Source: Lingula anatina (lineage: Eukaryota > Animalia > Brachiopoda). From it: a stretch of 64,000 nt of DNA. A program made the translations under genes and the position numbers. The notes under the pieces were generated by a model, which did not search any database, was not told the DNA's origin, and saw only the letters and a list, made by a program, of their open reading frames with translations. Shown piece by piece: positions 31,473 to 63,793 of the stretch; within the stretch, counting starts at the first letter, position 1; every line of letters starts with the position of its first letter. The DNA lies in assembly GCA_051362555.1 (NCBI GenBank), contig CM120640.1, positions 26,522,225 through 26,586,224 of the forward strand, in the 5' to 3' direction.

Positions 31473-35297
<3,825 letters not shown>

Positions 35298-35792
35298 GTT
35301 GGATATTAGTAGAGCTATGCGTTCATTTATTCAGCAGTCACAGTTTCGTATTTATTTGTTTCAAACTGGCAGTGTAAAATCCTAACAGAATACATTCAAT
35401 TTCAATAAACAGACATTTATATAAACGTTAGAAGTAATGTGCTTTCTAAAAATGTGATGTTAGCTGATTTACTGAAACCATAAACGCATATGCATTCCAA
35501 GTTTCGGTGATGCAAATTATTCCTTGTCTTTTGAAACACCAATGGCCACATATATTGATGACGTAAAAATTTAAACATCACAACAACATTCAACAAGCAG
35601 GCGAGTAGTTTGGAGTTCTCGCCTTCAGTTTTTGTATCGCAAACTTTAATGTGAAACTATTTTACGTTGACTTTTGCAGAATGGATTAGGTTTGGGGCTG
35701 TTTAGTTTCAAAGAAAGCTAAAAGTTTCAGAGGAATCGAAAGAGTGCAATAATTGATTCCCCAAGTAGGCTTCACATGCAGTGGCAGTGGCG
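35298..35792. promoter_or_regulatory. Probable bidirectional promoter region shared by PSMA4 and the laminin-like gene
   Basis: The two start codons diverge and are only ~495 bp apart. The interval is locally richer in CpG than the gene bodies and contains CCAAT (35539-35543) and a CRE-like TGACGTAA (35559-35566). TSS positions cannot be read from sequence alone. Confidence 0.55.
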
Positions 35793-38700: not shown

Positions 38701-41700
38701 AAAATCTTTTATTATTTCAATTTAACAAAAAGAAAACAAAAACAAAATGGACAGGTCACGCATAGGTCACGACTAGATACTGTGTTTGTTAGCGCAGCAC
38801 TTCAAGTTCAACTGTTTTCTAAGCTGGCCAAATCTGGGGCTAGCCGGTTGCTGCAAACCACTTTGTTTCCAACTGGCAAATGACTGCCAATAATAAACGA
38901 TCCATTTTGTCTGTGATAATAAATTTTACACTTCAAATTTTCCGGGCAAGTGAACAGCCGAAAGTCACTTGCGTTTCCGGGCAACTACCAGCTAAATTTT
39001 AGTTGCCCGGCTGATAAAACTAGTTGCGAAACGCAACCATCGCAAGTAGGTATGTCGGACTCTGAAATCTATAGTAAATAACTTTGCCTACCTTGCATGA
39101 CAAAACCTTTTAATTGACTGTTGTTTTTTTCCTTTGCTTTTCCTTTTTCTCGTCATTTTGTCATCACTGGTAATCAGCAGAGCTGGAAATTCCCGGTCAC
39201 CCGCTCGTCAAATGCAACTAAAAATTTATTCTGACGACTAAAACTACAAAAGTCACAAGGGTTACTGGCCTAAAGTATTTGGTCTGGGCGAGTGATTTAA
39301 ATTGGTCCTAAACGTATGGTTGCTCAATTAAAATGTTGAACAATTATGTGAATAAAAAAACGATCATTTCATCGTTGTTCATACCTTGTTTATACTAAAG
39401 AGAGGCACACGTGCTTTGACCTAAAACTTGCATATTATGACCAATCAGAGAAGATTACGTCATCCTCTGCGGGTCAGTGAAAGAAGAAGCATGTTTTAGT
39501 CGGGTAATTCAAATATCTTAAGAAAAAAATGAGACACTTGGGAATCAATTATGACATCTTCAACATGAGTCTGACCGTCAACAGTCAACGGACTGGTCAA
39601 CTTCGCCGATCTTCAAAGCCAAAGGTGTGCGTATTCGTACGCGCTGGGGCTCCAGCCAGTGCGTAAAAACAGCAAAACAACGCGTAATTACGCACTCTCA
39701 TACGCTAACGAGTTTACTGTACTGTATCCAGGTATTTACAAAATCTATACTTGGGAGTAACTAGGAAATTAGTATTGATTTTATTGATTTAGCAAGTTGT
39801 CTGAAAGCATTCATGCACACTGATAATTTTGCTAAGGTTTTCTGATAAATTATTCAACACATGTGACAAATCTCTTGATGCGTTGTATTTGTATTCTACT
39901 ATTGTAGAATTGTGGCAGATACATCAATATAACCTGGAAATATATGTAAAATTTAGGATTGATCCATTTATATTTTTATTCTTATATTTGTACTAAAAAG
40001 TCACTTTAATCAACTCAGAGTGATAGTAGGTTGTTATTCAACACTACTTAGGGAAACATCTGTTCATAAATTTCAGTATAAGTAACTCACATTGAGTTTT
40101 GATTTCCTCAAGTCATGGTATTGTTCTTTTATTTTATATAATGCCCATTGCTATTAATGTATGGACACATTTTCCTTGTAGCAACACTACACAGTGCGTG
40201 ACATTGAGGTGATGGCAGAGTGTATATGTAATGGCCATCAGACTGACTGTGCACAGAACAACCTCACTGGCCAGTATTCTTGTGTGTGTGGTGGCAACAC
40301 AGAGGGTCTCTACTGTGAGAGATGTCAGCCTTATTATAACCAGGCAGCCTTCACTTATGGAATACCTTGTGAAAGTAAGAGAGAAATGGACTTGTTTGGA
40401 AAAATGGGATTGGGTTGCTGTGTTCTTGAGTATGTCAATGAATTTTTAATGTGACAGTTCCAGGCACCTAGTTTTCCAATGGTAATTAATTGAATTCAAC
40501 ATTTTATATGCTGCAGGAGATAATATTTCCATATCACACAAAAATGGGTTTAAGTATTTCTGTGACTTTAAAATTGAAATTTACTTGGTCTTCTATAAAT
40601 GTGTATAAAATCAAAATCCTTGAACTCAGCATAAAAAAAGATATCATTTTATCCTAGGCTGCAATTGTTTCAACCACAGTGAAGAGTGCTATTACAATCA
40701 GACAGTGGATGCCAACAACCTGAGTTTCAATAGCAGTGGTATCAGGGCAGGTGGTGGAGTTTGTATTGACTGTCAACACAATACTTCAGGTAACATCTGC
40801 TGTAACTCTGATATTCTAAATAAATTATGATTAATACATCATATGTTACTTGTGTAAATATGCCAAACTGTTGATGACAGGTAAAGTGATGTTTTTTCTG
40901 TTTAGCAGATGTAAAATTGATTTTTCTCATGAAAATTTAATAAGTTTTAATCCTACATACTGTGAGTGTTATATGAACAGTAGATTTCAAGTTATGCAGT
41001 GTATTTTAATGAAGATGTTGCCAAGAAATGAAAAATTATTATAATTATTTATGATATTTTGTGGCAATCCTTAAATATAATGGATATCCATTTTGCTGTG
41101 ATAAAAGAGCAGGTTTTTATCCCAACCTTGATTTCAGGTGTCAACTGTGAGAAATGTGAAGACTATTTTTTCCGTCCGCATGGCCGTCCCCAGACCCATC
41201 CTAATGCTTGTGTCTCCTGTGATTGTCACATGGCAGGGGTGACACTTAACCTGGAGACAGGACTTTTGGGTGACTGTGTCATGAATAATGATTCCATATT
41301 GCCAATTGGAAAGGTGAATAAATAGCTCAGTCAATTTCTAAATCATAAGATCATTTAAAAAATATACATATATTGAAGTGCCTTGTCACTTTTTAAGGAG
41401 AAAAGACTGAGCTAATGATTAACAGAAAATCCCCATGCCTGGACATTTTGAAACACTCAATGGTTCTTGGCACCCAGTTAATATTCATACATGATAAAAA
41501 GAGAACTAATGAAAAGTTGATTATTGAATTATCAGGGTTGAATCCTGAAACAAAAAAATTAACTTCATTGCCATGATGATATATTTCAGGCTCCAGGAGA
41601 CTGCTTCTGCAAATCCAATGTGATAGGTTCCAAGTGTGATCAGTGTGCTGAAGGCTACTTTAACCTGTCCCAAGAAAACCCACAGGGTTGTCAAGGTAAT

Positions 41701-44700
41701 ATTTACATACCAGTAGTGCATGGCTGAATTCAGAAATTGTATGCAAGCTCTAAATCATGCTTTATCCGACACACTGATGTTAAATTTGTGAATTTTTCTT
41801 TGATATTCATTGATAATCAAATAGGTGTTTGAAATTGAATTTTACATGTATAACTTGTAACACTGCTAATTCTGTTAGAGCAGTGCTGCAGTGACCAAAT
41901 TACATTATGATTTATAAAATAATATGCCATGATATTTCCCTCCAGGTTGTCTGTGCCACAGCCCAGGGACTATTGGTGGTTCAGGTATATGTGAACCTGA
42001 TAATAATGGACAATGTCCCTGTAAGGAGTTTACTACAAATCGTATCTGTGACATGTGCATGGATGGATATTATGGACTAGAGAGCAACAACACCCAAGGT
42101 TAGCTTTTTTTTTTAGGCTTTGGCATTAAACCATCTCACCTTTCCATTTTTGTATTGTACTTTAAATACATTTAACTTCATTTGGACTACCATCACATAT
42201 TTGGTTCACTTCCTGCTGACCCAAAAGGCCCAGAACCTCATACTTGAATGTCTTGAAAATATTGTGTTCTGTGTTCTATTGAAAAAAGACCAAGATGCAT
42301 GTCTGAGTTTATATCTTGTCTCTTTATTCTTTGAGTAAAGTATAAACATATAATTTTTCTAATTCTACTCTCCCTCCTCCCTCTGGTGTCAGTGTTCTAA
42401 ATATCCGTCTTAAAACTGTTATTATAATTTCTAGGATTTTCATTATATTTTCAGGATGCAGTCCATGTAACTGTGATGTTGGAGGTTCCACCAGTCCAGT
42501 ATGTAATAAGACCACTGGACAGTGTCCATGCAGGCCTAATGTGGCTGGACTGATGTGTGATAGGTATTTGCATGCTTGTTGTACCTATTTAATTGTATGA
42601 TCACTTACACAAAACCCTTAACCCTTATATTACAATATTTTCACAAAGGTGCTCACTATTTTTCACAGTGATTTAAAAAAAATTCATTCATAGTGACATT
42701 CATATGCAATGGTTATACATCCATGTGTTTTCAACTGTTTCAGACCAGCAGATAATTACTACTATCCATCTGTACACTTCATTAGTGCTGAGTTTGAAAA
42801 TCTTCAAAACAATGCCTGGGACAGAAAGCAGACACCTGATCCTTTCTTTGGATTTGGATATGGAGTTCTTACCCTCACAGTAAGTAAAACAAGTTTGTCA
42901 TGATAAATAGCAAAGTAGCAAAATTACACACACTGCAACCTGACTAGATTCAGTTTTATGACCTGAAGAATTTTAAATGAGAGAAATGTTTTCGTCTTAC
43001 TCTTTGAAGGAATAGTAATGATTTTAATAATTTCTTTGCCTTCTTTAATTGATTGTAATGGTTTATCAGGGGGAGTCCACCACCCAGTTAGACATACCTG
43101 CAATCGACCAGCTCTCTGGTCAGTTTCATGTTGTCCTCAGGTACATGGCCAATGGCAGCATGGATGGCAACCTGACTGTGCTCTCTGGACAAGGTAATAT
43201 TTAACAATCACAAAGTACTTGTATGAAAATTGAGAAAATTTTTGTATTTAGTTCACTTGCATGCTATTGTCAAGCTGGGTGCATTCTAATGGTTTTTGTG
43301 AAATGTATTTCACAATATTGTTAAATTTTTACTTATTAGCTTTTATTTTAAATTTGAATTTTTTATTTCTCTCATAAAATAAATCATCACTAACATATCT
43401 CTTTCAGTCCCACAGTTAAGGCAGATCATCAGCCTCAACTTCTGTCCCACATGGTGTTATATTGCTGTTGGCAATGATGCTGTCATTGACTTGCAGCCTG
43501 GATCCTATACCATCCAGATCCAGGTTCCTTCTCAAACTGGGATTGAAATACTATTGGTAAGGTTATATCTGCTTTGTTGAAGGATATGTCACAGCATTTT
43601 TAGATTTCTATTTATTTATTATTGGTTTTTTTATCGCCAGGAAAATATATTTGATTGATTTCCCTGTATTGTGTAAATGCTATATTATCATGAAGGTTTC
43701 TTTATTAGTTAAATAAGAGCATGCCTGTTTTTTTTCCATCTGACACAACTAACAAACTTTTAAAGAAATTCTTATACTAATATTGGTTCCTGGGATATGC
43801 AGCTGTTCAGAGTAGAACTGCATGAAGTTGGTATTCTTAATTTAAAATTATTTGCATGTTGACTTTCTGATGATGATTTTTTGTGTTGGTTTTATGTTGT
43901 ATTTCAATACTAACCCCAGTTATGCATGTTGGTTAAAGGATCAGGTTATAGCTCTCCCAGTAGAGTTCAGGAATGCTACAGAGGTGCTGGGTGGAGAAGC
44001 CAACACATTTCATTCCACTTGTGATGTTGTGAGTAATCTGGCAAGGTCAGTATCTAGGCTGTAAAAGTGATGGTATGTTTGGTCTCCTCTTAAAGCATCT
44101 TGTTGGCATCCATAGTTTTGTTAGAGGTGATTTAGTTGATTATTAAGTAGAAAGTATGAAGGACACGTGGATTCAAGCTTTGATAAACCTTGTTTAGTCT
44201 TTGATAGTTTCCAAAGAATTATTATTGTCTTGAGTAACAATAAGTGATTAGGATTTGTAGAAAATGTTCTTTGGAATATCTACCTCTACCCTTAATTAAA
44301 CATTTGTTATTAGGTAAAAGAAACATTGCCTCTATTTTTTATCATATGGGCTCAGGTAAAAGAAACATTGCCTCTATTTTTTATCATATGGGCTCAGTAA
44401 ACAGACAAAAAATGTGACAATGGCTTTTAACCACATATCTAATATGCCATTTGTTTTACAGGGACCCTGCTAGGCAAAATTACTGTGATTCCCAAGAGTT
44501 CTCCCTGACCTCATACTACCTGAATGGTGCAGTGCCCTGTAACTGTGACATCCTGGGCAGTAATGGGACCATGTGTCAGCCTAAAGGTGGTCAGTGTACA
44601 TGCAAACCAGGAGTGACTGGACAAAGGTGTGACCAGTGCATGGTAGAGTTCTACAGCCTGACTTCAGCAGGATGTGCAGGTAATCACAAGTTAAATTAGA

Positions 44701-47700
44701 TCACAGACTGTTATGCTGTGCCATTGTACAGTCTGTCTGTCTGTCTGTCTGTCCATCTCTCCAACCCTCCCTCTATCCCTTCAGTAGACTGTTTGAGACA
44801 TTGGGAATGACCTGGCAACCAGTATTTTTTCCTGCACCTTACATTTGGTTCTTGTTTTCTGTAACACAAATGTCCAAGTGTGTAGACCTTTGTTTTCTTC
44901 ACAAATTTAAGTCCCTTCAGCAATAATTCTCACACTACAAAAATGTAAATCCATATTTCTTCTGATTTGTTTTGTTCAAAAGAAAATTTAACCATACATT
45001 CTTGTTTTTATGTACAGACACAGATGTGTCTGTACATATTGCCATCACCTGCGTCTGTCGTCGCCGTCGCCGTCGCCGATCATGTCGCCGTCGCCGTGCA
45101 CTTTCAGCGTTAACACCATAAGTGGAAGACAGTTTTACTTTTTGGCTTTATATTTACAGAGCTGATGAATATTCATAAAACACAGGTCAAGTTCGAAAAT
45201 CAGTATGATCGGGCCATTATTGTAGAATTTATGCTGTTTTTTCACTTTTCAGCATATATGCAACACTGTTAACACATTTCAAGGAAAACTGATAGGCCTG
45301 TTGTCATGAAACTCACAGGAGTAATCAATCTTACTAAAACGCAGATCAAGTTCGAAAATCGGCATGATCGGGCCACTATTTTAGTAGTTATGCTGTTTTT
45401 TCACTTTTCAGCATATATGCAACACTGTTAACACATTTCAAGGAAAACCCATAGGCCTGTTGTCATGAAATTCACAGGAGTAATCAATCTTACTAAAACG
45501 CAGGTCAAGTTCGAAAATCGGCATAATCGGACCATTATTTTATAAGTTATGCTGTTTTTTCACATTTCCTCAGATTCAATTCTTAGGCATGTTAACAGTC
45601 TCATTTAATTAATAAGATACGTAAAAGTGTTTGTTTGACATTTTCTGCATCTTTACAACATTGTTAGTTGATTACTTAAAAATGATGGTAAACTTGTAAT
45701 CGTGTATTGTGTAATAAGGTGTCAAAAATGGAAATAAACTCATATCATTGCAGTTTGTAAGATTCAATCATTCACTATGTTCAGAAACTCAGAATGGAGG
45801 AAATTGGACATTTGACACTGTTCTATTGATATTTTTCACATCTCATCAATTTTCTTAGTTGATCATATAAAAATGGCAGTAAACTGTTAATTTTGTTTTA
45901 TGTTAAAAAAGTGTTAAAAATGGAAATAAACCCATTTCAGAATAGTGCTGTCTTGTTTCACATTTCCTCAGATTCAATTTTTAGGCATGTTAACAGTTTC
46001 ATTATTTAATTAATAAGATAAGTAAAAGTGTTTGTTTGACATTTCCTGCATCTTTACAACATTGTTAGTTGATTTTGTAAAAATGATGGTAAACTTGTTA
46101 TCGTGTATTGTGTAATAAAGTTTCAAAAATGGAAATAAACTCATATCACTGCAGTTTGTAAGATTCAATCATTCACTATGTTCAGAAACTCAGAATGGAG
46201 GAAATTGGACATTTGACACCGTTTTATTGATATTTTTCACATCTCATCAGTTTTCTTAGTTGATCATATAAAAATGGCAGTAAACTGTTAATTTTGTTTT
46301 ATGTTAAAAAAGTGTTAAAAATGGAAAAAAAAAACATTTCAGAACAGTGCTGTCTTGTTTACATTTTGGCATTTTCAAGTTGTGACTTTGAAGTTCCATG
46401 GGCCGGAAGACCTTTGCTAGTCAAATTTTCTGAATATCCATAATACTAATGTTTTATTATTAAAAATTGATGGTCATTATGCTGTTAAACGTTATGTAAT
46501 ATTGCATCAAAATTTGGAAAAAAATATTTTGGGCACTGCTCCCATGATGACCATTTAAGAAAAATCATGTCACTTACTGTTCTCAAACTTACAGGAAAGA
46601 AACATGGGACTAAAATACAGCTTCAGTATGCAATGCAGTCTGTTTGGTAATTCTTTCTGCTAGTTAAACAGTTTTTTTTGTGAAAGTTTAATTTTTCACA
46701 TATTGGCATTTTCAAGGTGTGACTTTGAAGTTCCATGGGCTTGAAGACACATGCTAGTCACATTTTCTGAAAATCCATGATACGCATATTTATTATTAAA
46801 AATTGACGGTCATTATGCTGTTAACCACTATGTAATATTGCATCAGAATAGAAGAAAACACAATTTTGGGTGCTGCTGCCATGATGACCATTATGGGAAA
46901 ACCATGTTACTGATGATTGCCAAATGTTCAGAAAAGAAATACAGGACTAAAATGCAGCCTGAGTTGGAAAAACAGTCTAATTGGCTTCTTTTTCTGGAAG
47001 TTATACATTTTCAAAGTGTGAACTTGAACTGCCATGGGCCTGAAGCCTTATGCTTGTTACACATTTTACTTACATTGGTATTACCTGTTGAGCATAATTT
47101 AAATTTGATGTTGAATTTGCAGTTTTACATAATGTACTTTTGCATCAGAATTGACAGTAGCCTATTTTGTGCATAGTTATTTCCTGCTTTTTGTCTGTAC
47201 ATTTGACAGCTTTGCTGCCTTGTTTTCTCTTTAGCCTGTGAGTGTGCCAGCGATGACAAGATCTGTGACTTTGTTACTGGTCAGTGTAAATGTCCACCCA
47301 ATACACAGGGCAGGCAGTGTGACCAGTGTGTGGCCAACCACTGGGGCTGGGATGGCAAAGTAGGGTGCCAGGCTTGTGGTTGTAATGCCACTGGCTCAGT
47401 GAACCTGCAGTGTAACCTGACCACAGGTGTGTGTGCCTGTCAGCCTGGAGTTCATGGTGCCCAGTGCCTGGAGTGCCTGGATGAGTATGCCTTCTTCAGT
47501 CCCACTGGCTGTGTGGCATGTAACTGTAACACTGCTGGCAGCACAAGTACTGTTTGTGACAAGGGGAGTGGACAGTGCCCATGCAAGGTCAGTGCACATG
47601 GAAAGTCAAGGTGTATCTGCTGTGTTTTAATCTAATGCTAAGGAAACTGAACATTGTGATATGTTTAAGAAACATGAAAATTTTTATTGTTCAGAATTGA

Positions 47701-50700
47701 TAACACAAAGAATAAGCACTGATTTCACCAACTGAAACATTTGGTCTTAAACAAATGAATAGAACAGGTTCTTGATTTTAATTTTAAAAAAAACTTTGAT
47801 AGTTTCTATTCCTTTGTATACACTGATAATTACTTTTTTCAGAGTAACACAGTGGGCCAGTACTGTGGCAGTTGTAGGGCAGGAACATACCATCTGTCTA
47901 GTAGTTATGATACTGGCTGCCTGGACTGTATATGTATGGGTATCACTCAGAACTGTGCCAGCTCAGGACTGAGATACACACGGGTGAGAAAAATGATCAG
48001 AGCTCACATGTAGAATCATGTATGGTAACAATGTGTAGCATGTAAGAAAACAGGGAAATTTTACAAAAACTAGATGTCCATGCTCATGAACTATCCCTGC
48101 TGTTTTAGTTTTTTGCATTTTAATAACGTATATCATGATATTTGATTGATTTAATCACAATTTTAAAAACAATTTGGTAAATAGTATATATAATATAATT
48201 TAAGTGTCATATTGCTTGATTTCTTCCATTTTTTCATTCAGCAAACTCTTGCAGTAAACCAGTTTAATGATGGTATTAGCAAGCCATCCTTTGAAGTGAT
48301 GAATGCCACCGCATCCAAACCTATCAATGCCACAAACACACTGCTGAATGGCATCGAAGTCGCCCAGGCAACCATTAGCAACCCACAAGAACCTCTGTAT
48401 TGGAGAAGCATATACACCTTCATCAATGACTTCACCAAGTATTACGGATCCAGTCTAAACATGACTGTGCATTATATCAATGTCCTTGGGTTTGGAGCAC
48501 CACTCAACACCAGTGTGGTGTTGGTCACACCCACTCAGAAGAGACTGTACTATTCAGTGCCCGAAGTTCAAGTCAACACCACCACAACAATATCAGTGAA
48601 ATGGCTGGAGAGTTTCTGGAGGGTTGTGGATACTAATGCTCCAGTGAGTAGAGGGGAGTTCCTCACATGTCTGGCTGATGTGAAGTGGCTGTTGCTTCCG
48701 GCTTCCTGGTCAACAGGGCCCCATGTCACAAGGTGAGTGGTGGATATATGTGTGGAATTTAAACTCAAGAAACCTTGAGGAAAGTTAATTTTAGTTGTGA
48801 TAGTGTTCAAAATGACGAGTGTTACTTAAATAAGATTTATATTTCGACTTCTGAGGATTAAGATTAGTAAGAAAATATTCAATTTACACAGTATTAATAG
48901 ATATTCAAGTGGGTAGCATTGATACACATGTAATTTTTCAATCCATGTTTTCAGTATTGAAGCTGTGCAGTATGAAGAAGCCTCCACCTCAGGCACTGGG
49001 TCTTTAGCACTGTCAGTAGAACAGTGTGTATGTCCTCCTGGATATGATGGACTTTCATGTGAGGTAAGACATTAAGTTCATTAAATATAAATGGTGGTGA
49101 CAATAAAAACCATTCTTAATTTTATAAGTTATATAGTTTAATGCTTAAGAAATGTATGTGCCTGTTTGTGAATAGTTATCATTCATTTTCAATTTATCAT
49201 CGGAAGAAATCATTTGTCATAAAAAAGGTTGATGGTGTCTAAGGTATTTTAGAGTTGAAAACACTTTCTCAGCCAGCAACACAAAGGTATTTGCTAATTT
49301 CTTGTTAATCCATAACAGTGCAGAAGAGTTGCATATTTTGATTAATATGCCCCTGATGTATTTATTCCAGAGATGTGCCACAGGGTACAAGCGTGAGAAC
49401 GTGACCACCCATGGCTACCTGGGTGTGTGTATTCCCTGTGAGTGTAATGGCCATGCTGAGTACTGTGACCCAGACACTGGAGAGTGCAAGGACTGCAGGG
49501 ATAACACCACAGGTACGGAGACTGTATTGGCAGTGAAAGCACTCAGTCAATACCTACTTCAGATGTAATTACCTCAAATTAGTATGTTGCCTTTGTGGAT
49601 GGCATGCTGCCTGTTCCTGATCATGTAAAATCTTTTTATTTATAAGAATACAGATTTTACAGTTAACCTTGCCCAGTGAGCAACCTAATTATTATCTATT
49701 TGTGTAGGGATGAAATGAAAAATAAAGCAGGGTATGTAAAAAAAATACCCATATAATATATAATTACTATAGGAGCTGAAGTCAGATTGAGAGAAAGTCT
49801 CAAAAACCTTACAAATATTTTATTATAAGCTACAGTCTTTTGAAAATACAACACCAGTGGATATGCACATTCTTTTCGTTACAGTGTAACAACCAGGCAG
49901 AATTACTGAATTTTCTGTATTATTCAGGGACAAACTGTGAACTTTGTGCCATTGGTTACTATGGCGATGCTACCCAGGGGACCCCCAATGACTGTAGGCC
50001 CTGTCCCTGCCACAGCCCCAGGGTCATGGACCCCAGCTGTACTGAGGTGAACGGATCAGTGCAGTGTCTTAGCTGTGCTCTAGGTTATACTGGAGATATA
50101 TGTGATAGGTAAGGGAATTAGTCTAACAAGGGAACTTCTGGTCTTGGGATGGGTATACGTCTACTACATTTCTCACTGGAAATAAAGTGAGCATATATTT
50201 CTGTAAGACCTGAAATTTAAGGAAACAACAACAACAACAACAAAAAATGGTTTATTATTGGCCAAATTATTTTTTTACACATTTCTTCCTATTATATTTG
50301 TTCAGTTTGGAGTGTATCAGACTGTATGGTATAATGTTCTCACTTCCAGCTGCTTACCATTCTTCTATGGCAACCCTGAGGTTCAGGGGACTGGGACTTG
50401 CACAGAGTGTAACTGTAATGGGAACTCCCTGGACTGTGACACCAGGACTGGGGTATGCTCAGGGTGCAGCTCCAACACCACTGGCTTACACTGTGAGAGG
50501 TGTATAGAGGGGATGTTTGGAGATGCCTCACAGCAGAATTGTAGAGGTAAAATTCAGTGCTGTTTATTTCTGTTAAAGTAAAACATGGAGATGTAAAAAA
50601 AGCAATAATGTTGGAATCAAATTTCTTCAGTTCATCTAGACTACAGGTTCAACATATAAAGTGTATTGACTCTAGGCATAACAAGCAAAGGATATTATTT

Positions 50701-53700
50701 TGATATTTTAGTCCAAGAGATTCTATATTCTTATTCTTATCTCCAGGTTGTGACTGTGTAATGACTGGCTCCACTAGTGCCATATGTAACCACACCACAG
50801 GTCAGTGTGACTGCAGACCAGGAGTGGGGACCAGAGACTGTGGGAGCTGCCTGGAAAACTACTGGGGATATAATATCAGACCATTCAACAGTATGTATCA
50901 CTGATATTGGTTGCTTGTTTCATTGCTTTGTTGTATGTTCAACTCACCATGTATCAGAGGCAGTGATGCACAACATGTCCCTGTCTTTCATGTATATTAA
51001 AGTATGGGATAAGATAGTTGCATTTGTCCCTGAAAATTTTACTTGTGGATAAGGGTATATCATGATTATCACAATGTATTTTTAATAAAGAATTAATAGC
51101 ATAAAAAAAGAGACATCTAATATGATGATAATATTTTAGGTTGCATACCATGTGACTGTAATGTGGCTGGCAGTACTACATTACAGTGTGCTGGGGACAC
51201 AGGTGTGTGTTCATGTAAGTCTCATACAGCTGGGGACAAGTGTGACCAGTGTGCACCTGGACTATGGGGACTGCCATATAGACCATGTGAAGGTAAGATA
51301 TGTTAATGACACTGGGGTGTGGTAACCTAAGAGTAAGGACTGGAGGAAAGGTGAGGGCTGAACACCTGGATTTTGGTGACTGTCAGCCATATAAACTGTG
51401 TAAAGGTATGAACACAGTATGATACGTATATGAAAAACATTCAGATTATGGTAATGGGCTGCATAGTGAGAGCATATTTTTACAAGGAAAGAGATGTCAG
51501 GAATTGCTTGTTAACACTTACATGTATTTTTCATTTTGAATAGAAAACTTTTTATTCTGAAGTCGTTTCTCCTGTTCTACTTCCAGCGTGTGCCTGTAAC
51601 ACCACTGGTAGTGTGAATGCATCAGCCCCCTGTGACACCGTATATGGTCAATGTGAGTGTAAGCCTGGGGTGACAGGCAGGCAGTGTGACCAGTGTGAGA
51701 AATTTTTCATTGGATTTGGTCCTGCTGGATGCACTAGTAAGTATACAGCGTACAATGTCTTCTAGACAATGCCTCGATCTTTTCAATGGGGCAAATTTGT
51801 GGATTTTTGCAATAATATATTTTAAAGTCATAATTACTTATAATTAGAACAAAATTTAAAAAACAGGCTACATTTAGTTCTATTCTATGTAGTAAAAGCA
51901 CCACAAATGCTATAAAGAAATACAATTTCTATGATTCTGAAATTATGTATCTGGAAAAGAGCAAATTATTACTGTTACAGCATACTTGTGTCCCATGGCT
52001 GATATCTATATCCAACACACAGTAAAAAGCGTGATGAAGTAGTAGTTGTCTGCTTTTAAAGCCTATGGCTCATTAAGTACATGTATGTAGTCCATGCTTA
52101 GTTACAATGATATGTGTGTTAATGTAATTATAATATATATCCTTTTTCCATTACAGGATGTCTTGATTGCCAGTATTCACTGGGTACAGATACACTTGTC
52201 TTGCAAGACACCTGGCAAACTTACTGGAATGTCAGCAGTACTGTAGGGGGCCTTGTGGCACAAGATGCACAGCTCCAGCAGCTCACTCAGACACTGACGG
52301 GGACTCTGGACAGTATTGGATTCTCAGAAAGCACTCTCTTCTCCCTGGAGGCTACATTGAGGAACATTACAAATAAGGAAGCTGGCTATAATCAGAGTGT
52401 TATCAGTCTGCAGTCAAGGGTGAGGAAATTAATCTATATATTTATTTCTTCTTACTTTGCCAACATTGTTGCTTTAAATGAAATGCATCTAAACTTATTT
52501 TCTCATGTTGACATTAATTTAGGTTCAAATGGCTGTTGATGCTGCTAATTCGTTAAGAAATGAAGCAAGAGCAGAGCTGAACAGGCTGCAAGACATCAAG
52601 AATGATGTCAGGAGTGCACTGCAGAGTGCTCTAGAAATTGAAGCTGTATCTGTTGGTACAATAAGTCAACTGACCAACTACAGTGTGCAAGTAGAACAGG
52701 TACAGTGTTTAATGTATATATATTTTCATAGCCCATATATAAATTATGTATTATAGAGGTAGAAGATTAAAAGAATGTCTTGGTTATTTGCACATAATCT
52801 CATTTTAAAAGTAAGCAAGTAAGAAGTTTTTGCAATTGGTTTCAATAACGAGTTGCAAACAATGTCATTAAACGAATACTTACATTCTATTATTCAGCTC
52901 CTTGCCAAAAGCAGAGAAGTAAGCAGGTATCTGAACCAGAACTTCTCAGCAGAATTGTCCAGAACAGCAGCAGAATTGGCTGCTGGCATTGCAACAGCTA
53001 CAGATGCACAGGCCACCAGTGAGCTGATTCAACAACAGGTAAGAATGAAGTAATTTTTGTCATGATTATGATAATATTTTCATGGGGATGTAAATATAAC
53101 TAAACTATATTTTGAATATCATCTTATCATTTTACAACTTAATTTTGACATTGCTAAAGTTTTGCATCTCTATTTTCATCAGAGTGCTGTGTGTGCTAAC
53201 TTAGAAGGTGCAGCTCTAAATGCTCAGTCTGCCCTGAGCCAAGTTGAGGCCAACATACAGGCCATAACCACTGCAGCAAGTAATGTAATGTCTGCCAGGG
53301 ATAGAGTGATGGACATACTCAACCAAACTGAGGTACACATTTGATGGATAGCTTTCTTATACACTAATATTCAGTGAGCTTGTGGGAAGGATATAATTTT
53401 TTTTTTTAATTTTTAATGCGCTTGCAAAATGTTCTTTTGATATTAAAAAGATGGCTTCAAATTCAGTTGTTTAGGATTAACATTCATAATATGTATATGT
53501 GGATTTAAAATGTATTGGATACAAGGACTTTACCCTGTTAAAGGGATAATAACTCTTCGTATGAGATCTATATTTCACAATAAAAACATTGTGAATAAAT
53601 CATAGAAATATAATATATTCTGTTTTACCACAAAAATGGCAGTTATAACTATTATTCTGATATCTGAGCTTGTCTTTAGACCACGTGACCTCCATTGATG

Positions 53701-56700
53701 GCTATACTCTGTTAAAATCTCTTAAGAGATTTTAACAAAAAAACAAACTTTTTAGAAAAAAACCAGGGACTAACTTTGAATGTAAAAATGGATTCATTAA
53801 CCATTGGTAAGTATAGGAAAATTGTTGTTTACTCCAGGAAAATTAATTTTTTGGCCGAAACGAAGAGTTATTATCCCTTTAAGATTTTTGTCTTATATAA
53901 AATAATTGGTTCAAAACATTTTACTTTTAGTATCAAAAAAGCTATGCATTGACCCTGTTTAGTGAGGCAGAAGCCATACTAAACTTGACAGCAGTTACTT
54001 TGAATGCCAGCAGAGACTCTTTCCTTGAAGGCCAACAGGCATTTGCTGAGGCATCAGCAATTGTTGCAGATGGGATTCCTAAAGACAGTATGTACTGCCC
54101 ACTATATTAATGCTAATTTGAAGTTACACTGCTTGCCATTATATGTAGTTTGAAGCATGTGCTAGGAAAAGAGAAGAGTTTTTTTTATTTTATCAAGTAC
54201 ACATCTTCACAGCATAAATTTGAATGTGATTTGCCTCATTGAAGTGTAATGCAAAATGCTTTTTTAGCACTGCACAAAGCAGTTTTAATTGATTTTGATA
54301 CCAAAAAATGTGAATGTATCTCAAAATATAGATTTGTGATTGTATAGAGACCTGAACCACAGAACCCCATCAAGATGAAGCCTTGAAGTACAGATTTGAG
54401 CAAATCACAGTCATTTATTTGGACTCCTCTAAATGTGGTGGAACTTGGGCAAAATTGTGGTTCACTGTATTGTGGACTGGGCTAATAATTTTTTGACAAC
54501 TTCTTGGTCTTGATGGGTTCTTGGGTTTAGTGGGAGTGATAGCATGCTAGAATGAGGTTTATGCTGCATGTTGCCTGACACCTTTGTAGCCACAATTGCT
54601 TTTTACCCTTTTCTTCTTGCCTTGGAGACAACAGTTTGACAGAATGCTTTAGTGCTCCTTAAACCAAATGGATGCATTCCAACCTTGAACTGGTTCTCTT
54701 TCTTTACAGTTCTGATATCCAGCTACATTTCCTGTTTTTTTTTATTATTATATCCCTAACTCATCATGATAATTGTTTTTATTTCTAACTTCTTCTTGAA
54801 CCTAAAGCATTATGCAGTCATGGTCACTGTGAAACTCAGTGACAATAACACACCAACTCCTGGATGTCTGCCTCTTGCTCTCTGTATATATATTCTGTAC
54901 CTGGAAGAATTATCCTCTCAATATCCTTCACATGAGTGAATTATCTTTCCCCCTCCATTCCCCCCTTGATGAGTGACATGAAAGTGGGTTTGGTTCTGCT
55001 AACAGGTGCATGCAGGTTAAAAGGTTTATATGTGATCCATGTAAAAATTTCAGACCAAATCCCACTGGATGCTGCAGGTCACCAGTACATGATAATGTTT
55101 ATGGAGAACAGAGTAGAGAATGGGCCCAAGTACAGATACCTGGAGCTGTTCATCACTCCAGCAGGTATAGAAACAAACAACGTGACAGTCCAAATAAATC
55201 AGGTGTACAATAGTGCTATACCAAACATGACCTTTGTGGTCAGTGCAGGAGAGGTGAAGAAGGTGAACATATCTGTTGAGCTCAGGATGCAAGGGTCAGT
55301 AATGACCAGGCAGGGTCTGGAGATTTTGGCCACTGATAGAATAGTTGTCTATGCCTTGAACAAGGATGAGTTCTCCACTGATGGGTTCCTGTCTCTTCCC
55401 AGAGAATCTCTGGGGACAGACTACTACACAGTCTCGTATTACCCTCCTAATTATAAAACACAGGTGGGTGTGGCAGCTATGGAGGATAACACTGAAGTGA
55501 TCATCACTTTGCCACAGCAGACCTTCACAAGCAGTCGCGTGTTTGTGCTGTACAGGGACAATATTTTCAGGAATGGTAACTCATTCACGGTGATGATGAA
55601 CAGGTTTGATACTCTCCAGTTACAAGACGAGGTGGCTGCTGATTTGACAGGCACACGCATCCAATCCAGCAAACTAGTGGCAGTGTTTAGTGGGAATGTA
55701 CGAACTAATGTGGGACAAGGCACCCGTTCTAGGGACCACTTGGCAGAGCAGATTCCACCAATCAGCTCATGGGGGAGGAACTTTGCAGTGGTGCCAATTC
55801 CAAATCGTACCACTGGAGATGTGGTCAAGATAGTTGCCAGCCAGCCAAATACAGAACTGATTGTTGCTAATGCTACAGAAGAAATGGTCTATACACTCAC
55901 CCAGGCAGGGAGTAGTAGAACACTCCTGCTACCGTCATCTACTTACTGTTTCATTGCAGCAACAAAACCCATCCTTGTAGCTCAAATTGTTTACAGTCAG
56001 TTGACAGAGGAGAGCATTGAAAAGGCTGACCCGTCAATGATCCTCATCCCGTCCATCGAGCACTACAGCTCCAACTACCATTTTGCCCTGCCAAAGCCCT
56101 CAGTGGGCAACTACACCCACTACTTTCTGATAGCCATTGAGGACAGTGCCAAGAATGGGGTCATTCTTGATGGTCAGCCATTGCCCAGTGCTGCCCTGTG
56201 GCACCCTATCCCCTTCACCACCTTAGTGGGTGGGTATTTTGTGGTCAGTGGAGACCAGGCACACACCATTACTCACACTGACCGCTCAGTGACCTTCATG
56301 GGGGTTATGTATGGAGCAGGAGACAGGGAGAGCTATGGACTGCCTATTGGGATGAGGGTACGAAACCAGGTAGGTCGACTGATTTTTATGGTTAAATTTC
56401 AGAAAAATTTAGATTTTAGAAGTTTAAGAGATTAACATTTCCATTTCATTGCTTATGTTATAAGTAAGTCACAAATATCCTGTCTTTACATTTTTGTATA
56501 GGTGTATATGTTTATGTTGATTATCTTTTTTCTTCTTTTTCATCTCTCCTCAGTATGAAGTTACAGGTATGTCTTTTTCAGTACTGTTTCATTCTCGTGA
56601 AAAACAATAGCAAGCAATCATAATTTGATGCTTTCTTATCTTGGAGTTAAGCCAATGTGTATATTCTTAGGGATAAAGTGGTGTGTTAACATTTTCAGAT

Positions 56701-59700
56701 ATAGATGCCTTATCCTTTTTCGATATAACTATATATTGCATGTTCTTACAAAAAGTGGTTGTCATTTAAGTTTCTATATGTATATATTTCAGCACTTCAA
56801 ACAACATTGGAATCATCAGGCAAAAAGTTTGTGGTAATGTACATGGAGAATAGGATCGAAATCCCTACTCAACCTTTTGTGGAGCTGTTTGTAACCCCAG
56901 CAGAGAATGTGTTCAGTGTACTGGTCAACATCAACCAAGTGTATGACCAAGCATATGGCAACCGGACATTGGTCATTCAGGGAGGACAAGTCAGAAAGGT
57001 GGACATTCCAGTCAGTTTTAGAGTAGTGGGGAATTCTCTTACTAGGCAGACCCTAGAGATCACCAGCTCAGAAGCTGTGGTGGTGTATGGAGTCAACAAG
57101 GATGAGTATTCCAGTGATGCCTTCCTGGCTTATCCTACTACTTCACTGGGGAAGGAGTATTATGTAGTGTCCTATGCACCTCCCACGATTAGCACAGAGT
57201 TGGGGATAGCTGGGGTGCATGGTAATACCAGAGTGAGTGTCACTTTCAGTCCTAATGTTCAGGTGTCATATGGTAGTGTCACATACGGTGGTGGTGACAC
57301 TCTGACAGTGACTTTGAACCAGTTCTCATCTCTACAGCTACAGAGCCAGTTTGGGGATTTGACTGGGACACGTATAGTATCAGACAAACCAGTGGCAGTT
57401 TTCAGTGGCAATGTCCGCACCAGTGTCCAAGGCAACTCAAGAGATCATCTTGTCGAGCAGTTGACTGCTGTTCAGTATTGGGGCACCGAGTTTGCTACTG
57501 TACCCGTACCACAGAGGACTGTAGGGGACATCTTCAGGGTTGTGGCAAGTGCAGACAACACGATTATTAATGTTCGAAATTCCACCAGTGTTGTGACATC
57601 TTATATCAACACTGCAGGGGGATTTGTACAACTACCTCTGGATTCAGCAACGTATTACTACATCACATCCAACTTCCCCGTGCAAGTTGTGCAGATAGTG
57701 AAAAGTCAATTAAATGGTGAGCTGGCAGATCCCTCCATGTTCCTGCTGCCCCCTATAGCCAGATACAGCACAGGGTACCACTTCTCCCTCCCAGCACAGG
57801 CAGCCACTGGGAGCTACACCCACTACTTCATGCTGGTTATAGAGAACAAGGACAAACATGGCTTGCTGCTGGATGGACAGCCCCTGAACACAGTCCAATC
57901 CCTGACTTGGAACACTATTCCAGGGACATCACTGGTGGGGACGTACTTTGAGCTCTCTGGGGACCAGTCTCACTTCATGACCCACTCTGACCCTAGTGTC
58001 ACCTTCATGGGACTCCTGTATGGTGCTGGGGATAAGGAAAGCTATGGTCTACCTATAGGACTGAGATTTGCAGATAATTTGGTGAGTGCACTTATTAGTC
58101 TTATAACGATGAAATTGATTTGTAATATTAGTGTATGCTAATTTACCATTAAATAATATCTTTTGAAATAAGAGAATGAGAATCATTTTATTATTTTTTA
58201 AATTGATTTTTTTTCTTCTTATCATTTCAGGAGGGAATACAAGGTAAAGAAACCTTTAAATAACATATATTTTTTGTGGCTTAATCTTCAAGATATTAAA
58301 ATACCAAATTCAAATGTTTTTTTTTACTTATTAATGTTTTGTGTGGAGATTGCATTTGACTAGCTTCAGAATGATTTTACGACTGAAACCTGAAGTGAAA
58401 TGAGATTAAACTAACACACTGTTTTACATTGCACGCCTTTTTGTGAGTAACACAAGCTTTTTTGTAACTATTATAGCTGCACCACCAACAATAGATGCAG
58501 GTAGAGAATACATGGTCGCTTTCATGGAAAATAGAATCGAAAATCCTAAATATCAGTACCTGGAGCTTTTCCTCACTGCAGCAGGGGACGCTGTGGCTGA
58601 TATATCCGTCAGCATATCACAAGTTCATGACAGAAATCTTGGTAATAGTTCTGTGGTTTTAAGACCAGGAGAGGTGACACGGGTAAATATTTCTGTACAG
58701 TTGAGAATGGAGGGCACCACTCTATCAAGGCAGGGAATAGAAGTGAAAGCCTCTGGGAACATCATCCTGTATGGTCTGAACAAGGATGAGTATTCCACTG
58801 ATGCATTTTTGGCCTTACCACAGAATGGCATTGGCACAGATTATTACACTGTCTCTTACTCACCGGCCACCACCAAGACCGAGTTTGTCATTGTGGGTAC
58901 CAGAGATGACACTGTGGTCACAGTGACCCTCCCAAATAGAAACAATGTAGCAGTCCAGTGGGCAGGTCAAATATATTCCAGAGGAGAGTCATTCAAGTTG
59001 ACATTGAACAGGTTTGATACAGTCCAGATCCAGAGTCCAGACTCTAACTCAGACCTCACTGGCACTCACGTCCAGTCTGATAGACCAGTGACAGTCCTAA
59101 GTGGAAATGTTAGGACTCAGGTCGGCCAAGGAGTGTCCCGAGACCACCTGGTGGAGCAGATCCCTCCTGTGTCTTCATGGGGGAGAAACTTTGCCACAGT
59201 GCCTATCCCAAACAGAAGCACGGGGGATATTTTTAGAGTTGTTGCAAGCCAGGATAACACTATTGTCACCATAAGGAACACAGATGGGGACCAAGTCAAG
59301 ATTTTAGATTCAGCAGGAGGATACACAGAGTTCACTATATCATCTACTGCTTACTCCTATATTACGTCTAACCATCCCATATTGCTTGTCCAGATTGTAA
59401 AAAGTCAGGTGTCATCATCAACATCTGAGGTGGCTGACCCAGCTATGATGGTGGTCCCACCTTTTGAGCATTACAGCAACAATTACCACTTCTTATTGCC
59501 TTCTGGTGTGGCTGATACTTATGTCCACTATTTTCTGTTGGTCATTGAGTCTGACCTGAGAAATGACCTAAGACTGGACGGCACATTCATGACTGGGTTG
59601 CCATGGCAGAGTATACCTGGGACAAATAAAGTAGGCACTTTCTTTGAGGTTACTGGGAGCCAAGCCCATGTATTAAATCATGTGAACCCCAATGTAACAT

Positions 59701-62700
59701 TTATGGGGATGCTGTATGGAGCTGGTGACAGGGAAAGTTATGGACTGCCAATAGGCATGCGCTTAGTTGAAAATGTGGTGAGTTGAAATTTTAAAGAACT
59801 TGGTTGGAATATAAATATCTAAACTTCTTTATGAATTATGCATGTATTATTACATAAGCCTGAGTTTATACAGTTAATAGGGCTTGTTTTGCAACTGTAT
59901 ACTCAAGTATGGTAAATATTGCAGATGATGCATAATACATTTGGCTATGCAAGAAGAAAGCACACTTAGCACAAAACACATTTTGTCAGTGTTTAATCAA
60001 TTTGCCATAGCACTTTGTTTGAAAGCATGAATTTTATTGTTTTTTGCACATTTTTTACATTTTACCTAGGATCAAGGAGGTAAGATTGGATAACTAGAAA
60101 CCAATAGTATAATGCTTTGTGATTCTTGTGTCTTTTTCCTCATCCTTTTGTCCCTTTAATTAATATGTAAGCTTTACATTTTCTATTTTTCAGTATCTTA
60201 ATCCCCAAAAGCTAAATAATTAATCACTGACTTTCCAGACTTTCTTGAAACTTACCATCAAAACATGTCTTCTTTTGTATCGGTCTGAGTTTTGACTTTA
60301 CTATTTGATAATAGCCAGTTGTACAGCGGCATTACTATTCATCATTATGCTATGTTTTCCATTTCATGACTAGGACAAAATGCATCTACAGGTTAAAGCT
60401 GAATTTTGAAATAATGATTATTATGTATGATTATGCACAGTGTATGTGTTAGTCAGGCACAGGTGCTGTTGGGGTAGGGAGTAGTATTTGTATACATGTA
60501 TGGAATATGGGCCGGTGTCAACATAAGTATTGGGTTGTTTTCATTTTCTATGTACATATTACACTACATAATGGCATTTTCAAATACATTATCTCTGCTT
60601 GCTAGCTGACCATCTCTTAGTGTTGGCATCTTTGAAGTTTTTCTCTTTTTGAATTCTCTGTGAGGGAATTGTTTAACTGTAATCACAGAAATATATTCAC
60701 TGCAACGACATATTTGTGAAATAATCATGATGAGGATATCCATTTTTACTGAATTAATGAATTTCACATTGAAGTTGTAATTTCAATAAATCTTTTTTAT
60801 TTTAAATGATGATTTTCTGAATTTTGGGGTTTTATTTACGAAAAAACCCTTTTAGAATATAAGATAAAACTGAAAAGTAGAAATTAGGATATTTGTACAT
60901 TTTTAATGTAGAATTTGTGTCAATATCATATTTAATGTGTCAAATATTAACTCTAACTTTTTAATATAGGTTTTGAGAGCTGGACCAACATTTCCATGCA
61001 GTTGAGGACTTTGTCCAACAGTACAGAGCAGCTGATGCTGGACACACAGGTCTTAGCACAGCAGGCAGAACAACATGCCCAGACTGTCACTGCAGCTGCA
61101 CAGGCTATTCAAAGGTACTGCTGTGTGAAAATCTTGTCCTAGATTATACTTGTGATATGATGTTTAAGAATTCATAGCAATAATAATGTAGTCATACAAA
61201 TGACGGATTACAATCTAAATTTGAAAGAGTTTGTTTTGCCTTGAATCTGCTGTAATTTGTTTGAATATTTAAGTTGCCATTGTTTGATGTGGATATATCA
61301 AGATTTGTAATATTGTAAGATATATCAAAGACACCATTACAAGATCATACTGAATCCAGTGTTGTCAAATTTTTAGTAAAGTGATTTGCCTTATTCTGAC
61401 AATAAATACATTTTTAAAAATGACATTAAAGGTGTAGTTTAGCCATCTATACATCTCCTTACTATGTTTCCAGGGAGTTCTCCCTTGTAGAATCCAGAGG
61501 TGCCATGGCAGTGGATGCTATACAAAAGTATCAAGATGTTGCCAGAACTCTGAACTCCTCTCTGTACCTGGCTCAAGATGCCAACAACACAGTGACTCAG
61601 GCCATGCAGTCCATGCAGGACATCACAGTGGTAGACCTCCAGAACCAGGCACAGACCAGCTCACAGGCTAGTTTGGACATGAAGGCCCAAGTTGATGCAA
61701 GGGTTATAAATCTTGCAGGTAATTATGGTTTAATGAAGTGGTTTATTGTAGATTTTCTACATTTTGGATAAAGTAATTGCACTCAAAAGGAGTCCAGTGT
61801 TATCAAGTTTTCAGTAAGATGAATAGACTTTGTACTAAGTGTGTACTATAAAGGTTTTTTTTTCATTTTTGGGGAATTTTTTTAAAGACAGGATATTCAT
61901 GATTGCCAATGAGAGCTAACACAGCAATACTCATAAATTCATCATACATTATTTTAAGTTTAGCCAATTTTCATATTTCTTTATCAATAAAAGTTTTATA
62001 AAGTTACTTTTTTAACCAAGGCAAAATAATCAAACTGAAATTTTCTATGATTATGTAAAGCCATGCCGTGTGTTAGCCTGCCTTTAAATATATGACAGAT
62101 AATATTTTTGCTGAATCTTTATGTGAACCAATTTGTTTGATTAGGTCTCAACTCCCAGTTGAATTCTGCCAACTCCAGTCTGCAGTCAGCAGTAGGCATG
62201 TGGGCTGGTTTAGAGACACAGATAGCCAACCTGGAGGCAAGAGCTGCACAAGTGAATGCAGCTTCTGCAGGTACACAGGCACTATAGATAGATAGAACAA
62301 TAATACTGCCTTGTATTATTACATTTCTTCTATATTTCTTAATTTTTGTTGCGACAGTCACCAGTGCTGTGTGCCACAATTCTGTGAAATTATAAGCAGT
62401 TTTACATTGGGTATTTTTAAACAGGAACAATCTCGAATATCAAAAAATCATTTCTGTTTTTCAAAAGGTTTGTTTTCAAATTTTCAGATCCAGGCATTAT
62501 GACCTTGCTGGACTCAGCTAACAATACAGCCACCCAGGCTCAACAGCTGAGTGACCAGGTGCTCCAGGCTGACCAGAGTGACCAGAGCCAAATCCAAGCT
62601 CAGGAGGATCTCGTAGCTGTCATACAGACTAGTGTTAACAGCATATCAGTGGTCACTGCACAAATTAATGCAGAATGTAAGTCGATTTAAATTGAAATGA

Positions 62701-63793
62701 ATTTACTGTGTAGGGTTTTTTTTTAATTGGTTTGTCGATGGATTTGCCGAAGAAGTTGCTGGAATTTTTTTTAAAAAATATACTTTGTAAAAGAAATACA
62801 TTTGTATCCCACTGCAGTGAAATGATGTATCAAGTAACTGATGCAATTCTAAAGTATTGAAGAACATAGATAAGGATTATTTGAAGGGAGACATAGTGAT
62901 TTAAAATATCTTTTTGTATACCTTGTGTCAGCCTTTTGAAACCCCAATTTTCCAATTTTCAGTACAAAGCTACAAAATAATGTACAGTCAGATGCAGAGT
63001 CGACTGACCGCAATCAACCAATTCCACAGTGAAACTAATGCCACAAGATACCGACTATCAGCAAAAATGGCGAGCATAGAGGCCAAGCTTGCTCGTGCCA
63101 AGCAGCTAGCATCTAGCCTTGAGCGCCCTGTGAGCTTCCCAGGCAGTGCACACATCACAGTGCAAAACCCATCCCTAGAGAGCAGAATATTCAATGAGCT
63201 GTCCCTAGAGTTCAGGGCAAGCCAGGAGAATGCTACAGGGGTGATCTTCTATGCTGATGGCACAGCTGATAACTCCTGGCTGACTCTGTATGTGAACCAT
63301 GGTACATTGGTTTTTGAATTCAACCTGGGGAGTGGCATAGTAAGAATGGAGAGCTTAGCTACTATTTGCAGTGGCTGCTGGCTCAAAGTTTTAGCCAACA
63401 GGTAAGGTGGTAGCAGCATCTAGGCTGCTGTGATGTGATGGATTCTAGAAGTTAATGACAATGACATGAGTTTGTACGATACCTTATGCCAGTAATGTTT
63501 ATATTAGTGAAAACTTCCTTTTTATTAAGTTAATGAATACTGGTGATTATTCATTAAGAATGTTACAAGTTATTTTAAGATGTTATTGGTATAATACATT
63601 CTCCAGGGATGAAAAGGAAAGTAGATATTAATACATGGGAATATTTCTTAAAAGGTATACCAGCACTGGTCACCTGACAGTGACCAGAATGTCCACAGGG
63701 GGCTCTACTACAGCATATGGAGAGAACAATGTGGGGAACTCCCTCCAACTGGGGGCAGACTTGGTCCTTGCAGGAATGCCATCCAATGCTAAG
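35793..63793 (+). CDS. Laminin alpha-like chain (signal peptide, LN, LE repeats, LF-like, LE, L4, LE, coiled coil interrupted by 3 IgGFc-binding-type domains, LG1...), 3'-partial
   Basis: 42 phase-consistent exons: 35793-36128, 37302-37532, 38066-38104, 38381-38458, 40182-40374, 40658-40789, 41138-41313, 41590-41695, 41946-42098, 42455-42563, 42744-42879, 43070-43193, 43408-43556, 43939-44045, 44462-44679, 47235-47587, 47843-47983, 48242-48732, 48955-49063, 49371-49512, 49928-50108, 50350-50546, 50747-50890, 51140-51292, 51587-51736, 52157-52419, 52523-52699, 52898-53038, 53183-53332, 53931-54087, [55054-56369, 56554-56566, 56793-58081, 58231-58243, 58477-59777, 60070-60079], 60970-61114, 61474-61718, 62145-62270, 62488-62676, 62963-63401, 63655-63793. 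Signal peptide [19 protein letters not shown]; LN motifs [15 protein letters not shown] and [17 protein letters not shown]; alpha-type LE2 ([17 protein letters not shown]...[14 protein letters not shown]); many LE repeats; L4 domain ending [16 protein letters not shown]; CLDC start of a heptad region; LG start (ELSLEFR...[19 protein letters not shown]). Confidence 0.9.
38519..39719. mobile_element. Non-autonomous hAT-like DNA element (~1.2 kb) with a 5-bp flanking duplication
   Basis: Imperfect 11-bp TIR CAGTGCACTCG / CAGTAAACTCG (reverse complement of 39709-39719), TACTG directly flanking both ends, and a CpG-rich interior in an otherwise CpG-poor intron. Confidence 0.6.
44312..44397. repeat. 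Exact 42-bp tandem duplication
   Basis: AGGTAAAAGAAACATTGCCTCTATTTTTTATCATATGGGCTC occurs twice head-to-tail (44312, 44354). Confidence 0.9.
45010..47223 (+). mobile_element. Helentron-associated non-autonomous element (HINE / DINE-1-like)
   Basis: 5' hairpin ATGTACAGACAC-agat-GTGTCTGTACAT (45010-45037), (GTCGCC)n microsatellite (~45055-45097), and central tandem arrays (~159-bp units at 45183/45342/45501; ~398-bp units at 45560/45958; ~300-340-bp units at 46366/46703/~47005). A 3' subterminal IR TGTCTGTACAT (47192-47202) is followed by a short stem-loop GACAGCTTTGCTGCC, and both flanks are T-runs. This matches the canonical HINE layout. Confidence 0.8.
53542..53878. mobile_element. Kolobok-like MITE (337 bp)
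   Basis: Perfect 19-bp TIR AGGGATAATAACTCTTCGT at both ends with TTAA on each flank (53538-53541, 53879-53882). TTAA TSD with RR...YY termini is typical of Kolobok; piggyBac termini start CC. Confidence 0.8.
55054..56369 (+). CDS. Laminin cassette exon 1: IgGFc-binding protein N-terminal-type domain
   Basis: 1316-nt exon, tttcag acceptor (phase 1), cag|gtaggt donor (phase 0). Motifs [75 protein letters not shown] are typical of the FCGBP N-terminal (IgGFc_binding) family. Confidence 0.88.
56554..56566 (+). CDS. 13-nt microexon (YEVT+g) completing cassette module 1
   Basis: Preceded by a ~30-nt pyrimidine tract ending ctcag and followed by gtatgt. It converts phase 0 to phase 1 exactly as needed to join 56369 to 56793. 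Confidence 0.72.
56793..58081 (+). CDS. Laminin cassette exon 2: IgGFc-binding protein N-terminal-type domain
   Basis: 1289-nt exon, ttcag acceptor (phase 1), ttg|gtgagt donor (phase 0). Motifs [63 protein letters not shown]. Confidence 0.88.
58231..58243 (+). CDS. 13-nt microexon (EGIQ+g) completing cassette module 2
   Basis: Pyrimidine tract ending tttcag, donor aag|gtaaag; phase 0 to phase 1, same length and position as the microexon in module 1. Confidence 0.72.
58477..59777 (+). CDS. Laminin cassette exon 3: IgGFc-binding protein N-terminal-type domain
   Basis: 1301-nt exon, tatag acceptor (phase 1), gtg|gtgagt donor (phase 0). Motifs [70 protein letters not shown]. Confidence 0.88.
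60070..60079 (+). CDS. 10-nt microexon (DQG+g) completing cassette module 3
   Basis: T-rich tract ending cctag, strong donor gag|gtaaga; phase 0 to phase 1, matching the phase-1 acceptor of the coiled-coil exon at 60970. Confidence 0.68.

Follow-up and report, generated by a model that had tools for sequence, protein, structure and literature searches.

A laminin alpha-type gene of Lingula anatina with three FCGBP_N modules in its coiled coil, probably included in most transcripts

The laminin coiled coil is regarded as an almost unbroken rod of three chains. In the brachiopod Lingula anatina, a window of 64,000 nucleotides (GenBank assembly GCA_051362555.1, contig CM120640.1, positions 26,522,225 to 26,586,224 of the forward strand; GC content about 35%) holds a laminin alpha-type gene in which three tandem FCGBP_N/IgGFc_binding (PF17517) modules interrupt, in frame, a coiled coil of 581 residues after its position 291, and we were interested whether these modules are switched by splicing or belong to the chain as a rule. 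From the reading frame, RNA reads, splice sites and the rod around the insert, the chain probably carries all three modules in most transcripts, and these are predicted to loop out of the rod rather than to serve as a regulated combinatorial cassette.

Layout and reading frame of the insert

Each module consists of a large exon and a microexon, so that the insert comprises six exons (window coordinates):

55054..56369, plus strand: large exon of module 1, FCGBP_N/IgGFc_binding, 1316 nt, phase 1-0; Pfam E 1.6e-59, RNA depth
56554..56566, plus strand: microexon 1, 13 nt, phase 0-1; its letters stand inside the joint from 56369 (10 reads, three of four runs)
56793..58081, plus strand: large exon of module 2, FCGBP_N, 1289 nt, phase 1-0; Pfam E 4.9e-61, RNA depth
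58231..58243, plus strand: predicted microexon 2, 13 nt, phase 0-1; rank 1 of 65 AG..GT candidates in the gap
58477..59777, plus strand: large exon of module 3, FCGBP_N, 1301 nt, phase 1-0; Pfam E 3.4e-66
60070..60079, plus strand: predicted microexon 3, 10 nt, phase 0-1; rank 2 of 537 candidates and the best that restores the frame

The modules score 202, 207 and 224 bits against PF17517 (gathering cut-off 25.6), cover profile positions 1-297, are 49-51% identical to one another and contain 1, 0 and 0 cysteines. The whole block measures 3942 nt (1314 aa), with introns of 149-292 nt inside it and flanking introns of 966 and 890 nt, and its frame and phase fit the laminin at both ends, where the joints 54087^55054 and 60079^60970 would connect it to the chain.

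An earlier note on this DNA had described the modules as symmetric phase 1-1 units of 1329, 1302 and 1311 nt that permit up to eight in-frame isoforms. Its lengths, coordinates and phases are correct, with AG/GT ends throughout, and all eight module combinations translate without a stop, the full skip reading GIPKD-S-FESWTN. The symmetry applies to each module as a block, bounded by phase-1 introns on both sides, but not to its exons, as an internal phase-0 intron divides the module into two asymmetric exons (1-0 and 0-1); when the six exons are mixed singly, 13 of 64 subsets are in frame, not 8. Because each of the two exons is asymmetric, skipping a module needs both to be removed together. 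A reading of the small exons as regulated microexons of the neural type was rejected, because none of their lengths (13, 13 and 10 nt) is divisible by three and the joints listed below include none that leads straight from module 1 to module 2.

RNA reads, the rod and competing readings

Raw-read runs under the same species label were used, and four of the nine runs listed were mapped to 52500-58150, with about 6, 6, 6 and 25 of every 100 reads sampled. The joint list comprises 15 of 21 joints, each with at least 5 reads, and depth estimates omit the bins under a repeat at 53538-53883. Module 1 was found spliced through microexon 1 to the first bases of module 2 in 3, 2, 0 and 5 reads of the four runs (10 in total). 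Within the laminin part, 52699^52898 and 53332^53931 were each supported by 7 reads. Two of the runs, X1 and X3, are stranded, and in both the strand of the modules is also that of the laminin exons. Pooled depth was 7.6 for the upstream laminin exons, 7.3 for module 1 and 7.1 for module 2, which led to module/laminin ratios of 0.96 and 0.93, respectively (rough 95% range 0.5-1.85). Three runs, which come from two studies, show modules 1 and 2 to be expressed and spliced, and the coding differences listed among the 40 best-supported of 562 are mostly synonymous in both parts of the gene (10 of 12 in the modules, 9 of 11 in the laminin exons). No skip joint stands among the 15 of 21 joints listed for this low-depth interval, and the reads in it agree with inclusion in most transcripts.

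Several points weigh against the preferred reading. Depth is low (1-8x), and the read evidence ends at 58150, before module 3 and the downstream side. The joint from laminin to module 1, starting at 54087, is absent among the joints listed, as is the expected constitutive joint 53038^53183; the displayed joints neither show nor exclude a link of laminin to the modules. Donor 54087 is the weakest of 42 when scored with a matrix derived from the splice sites of this gene, with the microexon donors at ranks 6-13. The runs disagree among themselves: in X7 the ratios are 0.76 (0.37-1.63) for module 1 and 0.52 (0.23-1.18) for module 2, and X4 gives the modules 6-9 times the depth of the exons upstream. 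X4 further shows 2 reads at 54080 whose orientation is matched by cover where module 2 begins but not where module 1 begins, a pattern that could be explained by a skip of module 1 in one fragment or by unspliced RNA, which gives cover in its intron bin 54201-54389. On the protein side, the covariation alignment used below is shallower than the domain is long, and the databases searched yielded no orthologous fusion; BLAST of the laminin parts against 207 fetched homologues gave a match in none of them.

Over the 141 exon bases of 52898-53038, run X7 carries 7 differences from the window, nearly all of them silent, and X1 mostly matches; X7 comes from a population that bears this species label but is strongly diverged.

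That the modules are regulated cassettes, of which zero to three are included by tissue or stage to yield a plain or a decorated laminin, appears unlikely. The frame would allow it in all eight module combinations and in the 13 exon subsets, module 2 in X7 reaches about half the depth of the upstream exons, and X4 gives its one indirect hint of a module-1 skip, for which the unspliced reads offer another explanation. One study argues that shuffled modules with symmetric phases tend to be skipped, and it associates skipping with weak sites, short exons and long introns (PMC6335736); by this pattern the weak donor 54087 argues for skipping, and the 1.3-kb exons with short introns argue against it. 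Two exons would also have to go together across these short introns. Symmetry itself is not beyond expectation, because any block that keeps the frame within an intron must be symmetric, so that it follows from the insertion; moreover, it is common in this gene, where 14 of 35 other internal exons outside the insert are symmetric and 18 of 41 introns are in phase 1. The switching of zero to three domains between tissues or stages, as proposed in the earlier note, did not appear in these reads: no skipped isoform was seen, the pooled ratios are close to those of full inclusion, and the sole listed joint at the end of module 1 is an inclusion joint. A wider proposal, in which a splice-tunable cluster of zero to three FCGBP_N modules at a natural break of the coil lets the locus switch basement membrane between a plain form and a form that binds mucus or secreted matrix, with an old array shared with another species, is likewise doubtful.

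The rod bears on a second alternative. Its halves measure 291 and 289 aa, 581 in all, which is close to the normal length of about 600 aa for a laminin coiled coil, though interrupted by the insert. Heptad periodicity is found in both halves, with the phase steady over long stretches, which in the first half make up most of its length. Across the insertion junction the heptad phase shifts by about 180 degrees, with a glycine and a proline just before it (the proline 3 residues before); later heptad shifts occur too, and such breaks are not unique. Full skipping, which had been expected to give an uninterrupted laminin, thus restores the reading frame but leaves this shift and the nearby proline. 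An equation of the insert with the hinge of laminin-332, which two sources place centrally, about 220 aa from the coil end and with prolines (PMC10888245; 10.64898/2026.02.08.704728), was rejected, since the insert stands 289 aa before LG1; the likeness is one of kind, not of position.

The second alternative accepts the fusion as real and holds that the insert disables the trimer, so that a divergent paralogue would be secreted as a laminin-derived matrix or mucus protein. It differs from the preferred reading only in mechanism and is independent of splicing, and we consider it improbable. The interruption by 1314 residues would fit, as would the divergence of the chain, whose LN exon matches solved laminins and netrins with E of only about 0.003 and whose coiled-coil/LG1 exon found no relative of similar length (79-254 aa) in the search, and the shortness of its LF-like region described below. 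Such a loss of assembly is opposed by the preserved total of the rod with its steady heptads, by the retained cysteine motif at the rod start, and by the rod end, which aligns with mouse laminin alpha-1.

Much less probable still is a separate transcript on the same strand, from a nested gene or an internal promoter, that would carry the modules as an N-terminal FCGBP_N protein, with the long laminin always spliced from 54087 to 60970. FCGBP_N is usually N-terminal according to a 2016 survey (PMC4948705), in-frame ATGs at 54969 and 54978 stand upstream of module 1 and are followed by a short hydrophobic stretch, and both the excess of module depth in X4 and the laminin-to-module joint missing from the display would agree with it. 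Comparable upstream ATGs, however, occur at 8 of the 41 acceptors of the gene, the intron bins just upstream of module 1 (54390-54956) are empty except for 0.1 in one X1 bin, and those intronic candidates for a first exon whose hydrophobic stretch is strongest end in poor donors. Of the 7 X7 reads over 54080, none extends past the exon into intron sequence, and pairs of a single orientation cover module 1 in its first bin. The ends of the block also fit the laminin phases, and pooled depth is equal on both parts. An assembly artefact or a dead insertion of pseudo-exons, with which the absence of the fusion from the database proteins searched would agree, is hardly credible and is largely refuted by the RNA for modules 1 and 2, as the modules are only about 50% identical to one another, fully open, expressed and spliced with mostly silent differences.

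Fold, relatives and origin of the modules

AlphaFold with a 66-row alignment led to a confident all-beta domain (pLDDT 94.6). Covariation in an alignment of 322 rows (Meff 273) gave a ladder of pairs 107-419, 108-420/421 and 109-423 at ranks 51-104, which puts the final strand (419-423) next to strand 107-109 in the first subdomain; because of this pairing, both termini are suggested to leave the domain on one side. Since the C-terminal strand appears paired with the N-terminal subdomain and the helix of the rod has its heptad break at this site, we infer that the modules would loop out of the rod as a cluster of beads on short linkers, with the beta and gamma chains running past, and that a trimer with these two chains may form on both sides of the loop. 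Speculatively, the insert would connect the laminin network with mucus-type partners or with others in the matrix; the mucus link of the domain rests on FCGBP (PMC4948705). For the inserted domain itself there was no sequence match in the PDB, Foldseek returned generic multi-sandwich matches only (TM below 0.2), and the best VIA-align hit (Z 8.2 over 88 residues, rmsd 2.7) gave no functional clue.

The closest homologues with names are brachiopod and mollusc proteins. In a domain tree of 40 rows, restricted to 37% identity or more with module 3, all three modules form one clade (98/85) with P0063 and P0066, the closest homologues at 54% and 48% identity to module 3. Module 3 groups most closely with P0063 (94/92, short of the star threshold), and monophyly of the three modules is neither shown nor ruled out. 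P0063 and P0066 each list a longest contig of 8714 nt and both read through as 'VS' where modules 2 and 3 have their donor; therefore, a tandem array with this exon boundary is likely in another species, and from these sequences the two are possibly an orthologous tandem array. In several metagenome loci the matches are split, and other lineages encode the domain in many pieces. Beta modules of class 1-1 are the usual units of exon shuffling (PMC8001218), and the tandem-paralogous class 1-1 modules found here are consistent with shuffling followed by duplication. The 1-1 symmetry had been taken as a signature of such shuffling: extracellular all-beta blocks in tandem agree with it, but the symmetry adds nothing beyond expectation. 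One class 1-1 block of large exon and microexon may have entered at a phase-1 intron and would then have been duplicated twice, long ago.

Fusions of laminin with FCGBP_N were not found by word-based protein searches at 759-2165 aa (50 matches) and at 3326-5000 aa (9 matches, with the Lingula domain as probe), in the best 150 of 9058 HMMER matches, in any of 66 metagenome loci, or by Pfam on 18 long matches, a set that leaves out the 7017-aa P0060. The literature searched, which does not cover subscription papers, contained no report of such a fusion, and 'laminin' in Fig. S5 of the 2016 survey refers to Laminin_G_3 only (6 of 6 matches; PMC4948705). Within the reach of these searches, the laminin architecture with inserted, mostly included FCGBP_N modules is likely new.

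Compared with laminin alpha chains of the alpha3/5 layout, the chain shares signal peptide, LN, LE arrays, one L4, the 581-aa coil and LG, and differs by the 1314-aa globular insert at the midpoint of the coil and by a short LF-like region. Proteins with PF17517 (vertebrate FCGBP; Lingula LOC106163541 and LOC106174328) contain the same domain as the modules, and tandem arrays of 2-17 FCGBP_N copies are common, with TSP1, collagen, EGF, ZP, CUB, VWD and lectin domains as partners. The arrangement of FCGBP proper, an N-terminal FCGBP_N with VWD-C8-TIL, is not seen here: the domains are internal and flanked by coil, the frames scanned gave no VWD match, and the modules are joined by very short microexon linkers inside the coiled coil. 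The laminin beta knob (L-beta), a cysteine-rich, non-helical insert of about 30 aa in the beta chain coil, is likewise a non-helical insert in one chain, whereas the present one comprises 1314 aa, is nearly free of cysteine and stands in an alpha-type chain. The EDA/EDB domains of fibronectin and the FNIII repeats of tenascin are also symmetric phase-1 beta modules of the extracellular matrix (class 1-1), and their skipping is established; in the present gene each unit has two exons, and no skip was observed.

If the preferred reading is true, the rod would be able to assemble as two independent halves around a large loop, which bears on the register of laminin chains, and a domain common to mucus proteins and bacterial surface proteins would be placed on a scaffold of the basement membrane. 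This interest is independent of alternative splicing, and tissue-specific switching would raise it.

The laminin gene and its neighbourhood

A model of 42 exons (35793-63793) encodes 3485 aa from the signal peptide through LG1, free of stops and with AG/GT at each junction. The domain order is signal peptide, LN, LE repeats, a non-LE region of about 190 aa, LE, L4/Laminin_B, LE, coiled coil, the three modules, coiled coil and LG1:

35793..36128, plus strand: coding exon 1, predicted signal peptide and start of LN; Laminin_N E 2.5e-7, signal peptide read from the sequence
37302..51736, plus strand: exons 2-25, remaining LN, LE repeats, the region of about 190 aa, LE, L4/Laminin_B (48242-48732), LE; Pfam and exon model
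52157..54087, plus strand: exons 26-30, encoding the 291 aa of coiled coil between the CLDC motif and the insert, the final exon (53931-54087) ending in phase 1; RNA joints 52699^52898 and 53332^53931
60970..63793, plus strand: remaining 289 aa of the coiled coil, followed by LG1, with the gene continuing past the window end; best PDB match laminin alpha-1, E 1.4e-7

Pfam matches in the gene are Laminin_N, EGF_laminin and Laminin_B, and signal peptide, LN, LE and L4 are all present as in laminin alpha chains. An Atlas search likewise identified the one Laminin_B domain in the L4 exon. The best PDB matches of the chain, from its LN and coiled-coil/LG1 exons, are laminin alpha-1 and netrin-4, both weak, and of the LG domains LG1 is present where the window ends. 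The region of about 190 aa (42744-44679) is without a Pfam match in the exon tested; we take it to be probably a shortened LF, and it would be far shorter than the LF of alpha3/5 chains. A single L4 together with this LF-like region suggests a shortened chain of the alpha3/5 type. Few LE repeats stand ahead of the LF-like region in the short arm.

The repeat at 53538-53883, in the intron before exon 53931, is an element of 346 nt resembling a miniature inverted-repeat transposable element, with perfect terminal inverted repeats of 23 nt and no second copy in the window. Read depth over it is hundreds- to thousands-fold and the flanks of these reads vary, which therefore points to many transcribed copies elsewhere. 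In the neighbourhood, exons of an ADAMTS-like gene (about 6280-28400, plus strand) encode cysteine-rich, spacer and TSP1 domains; one exon, 20816-21487, is rich in Ser, Tyr, Arg and Gln. A 2.5-kb intron contains internally repeated, transposon-like sequence at 45000-47150 (judged by eye). A proteasome subunit gene (PF00227; about 31300-35300, minus strand) apparently lies head to head with the laminin gene at a distance of about 500 nt, and the two possibly share a promoter.

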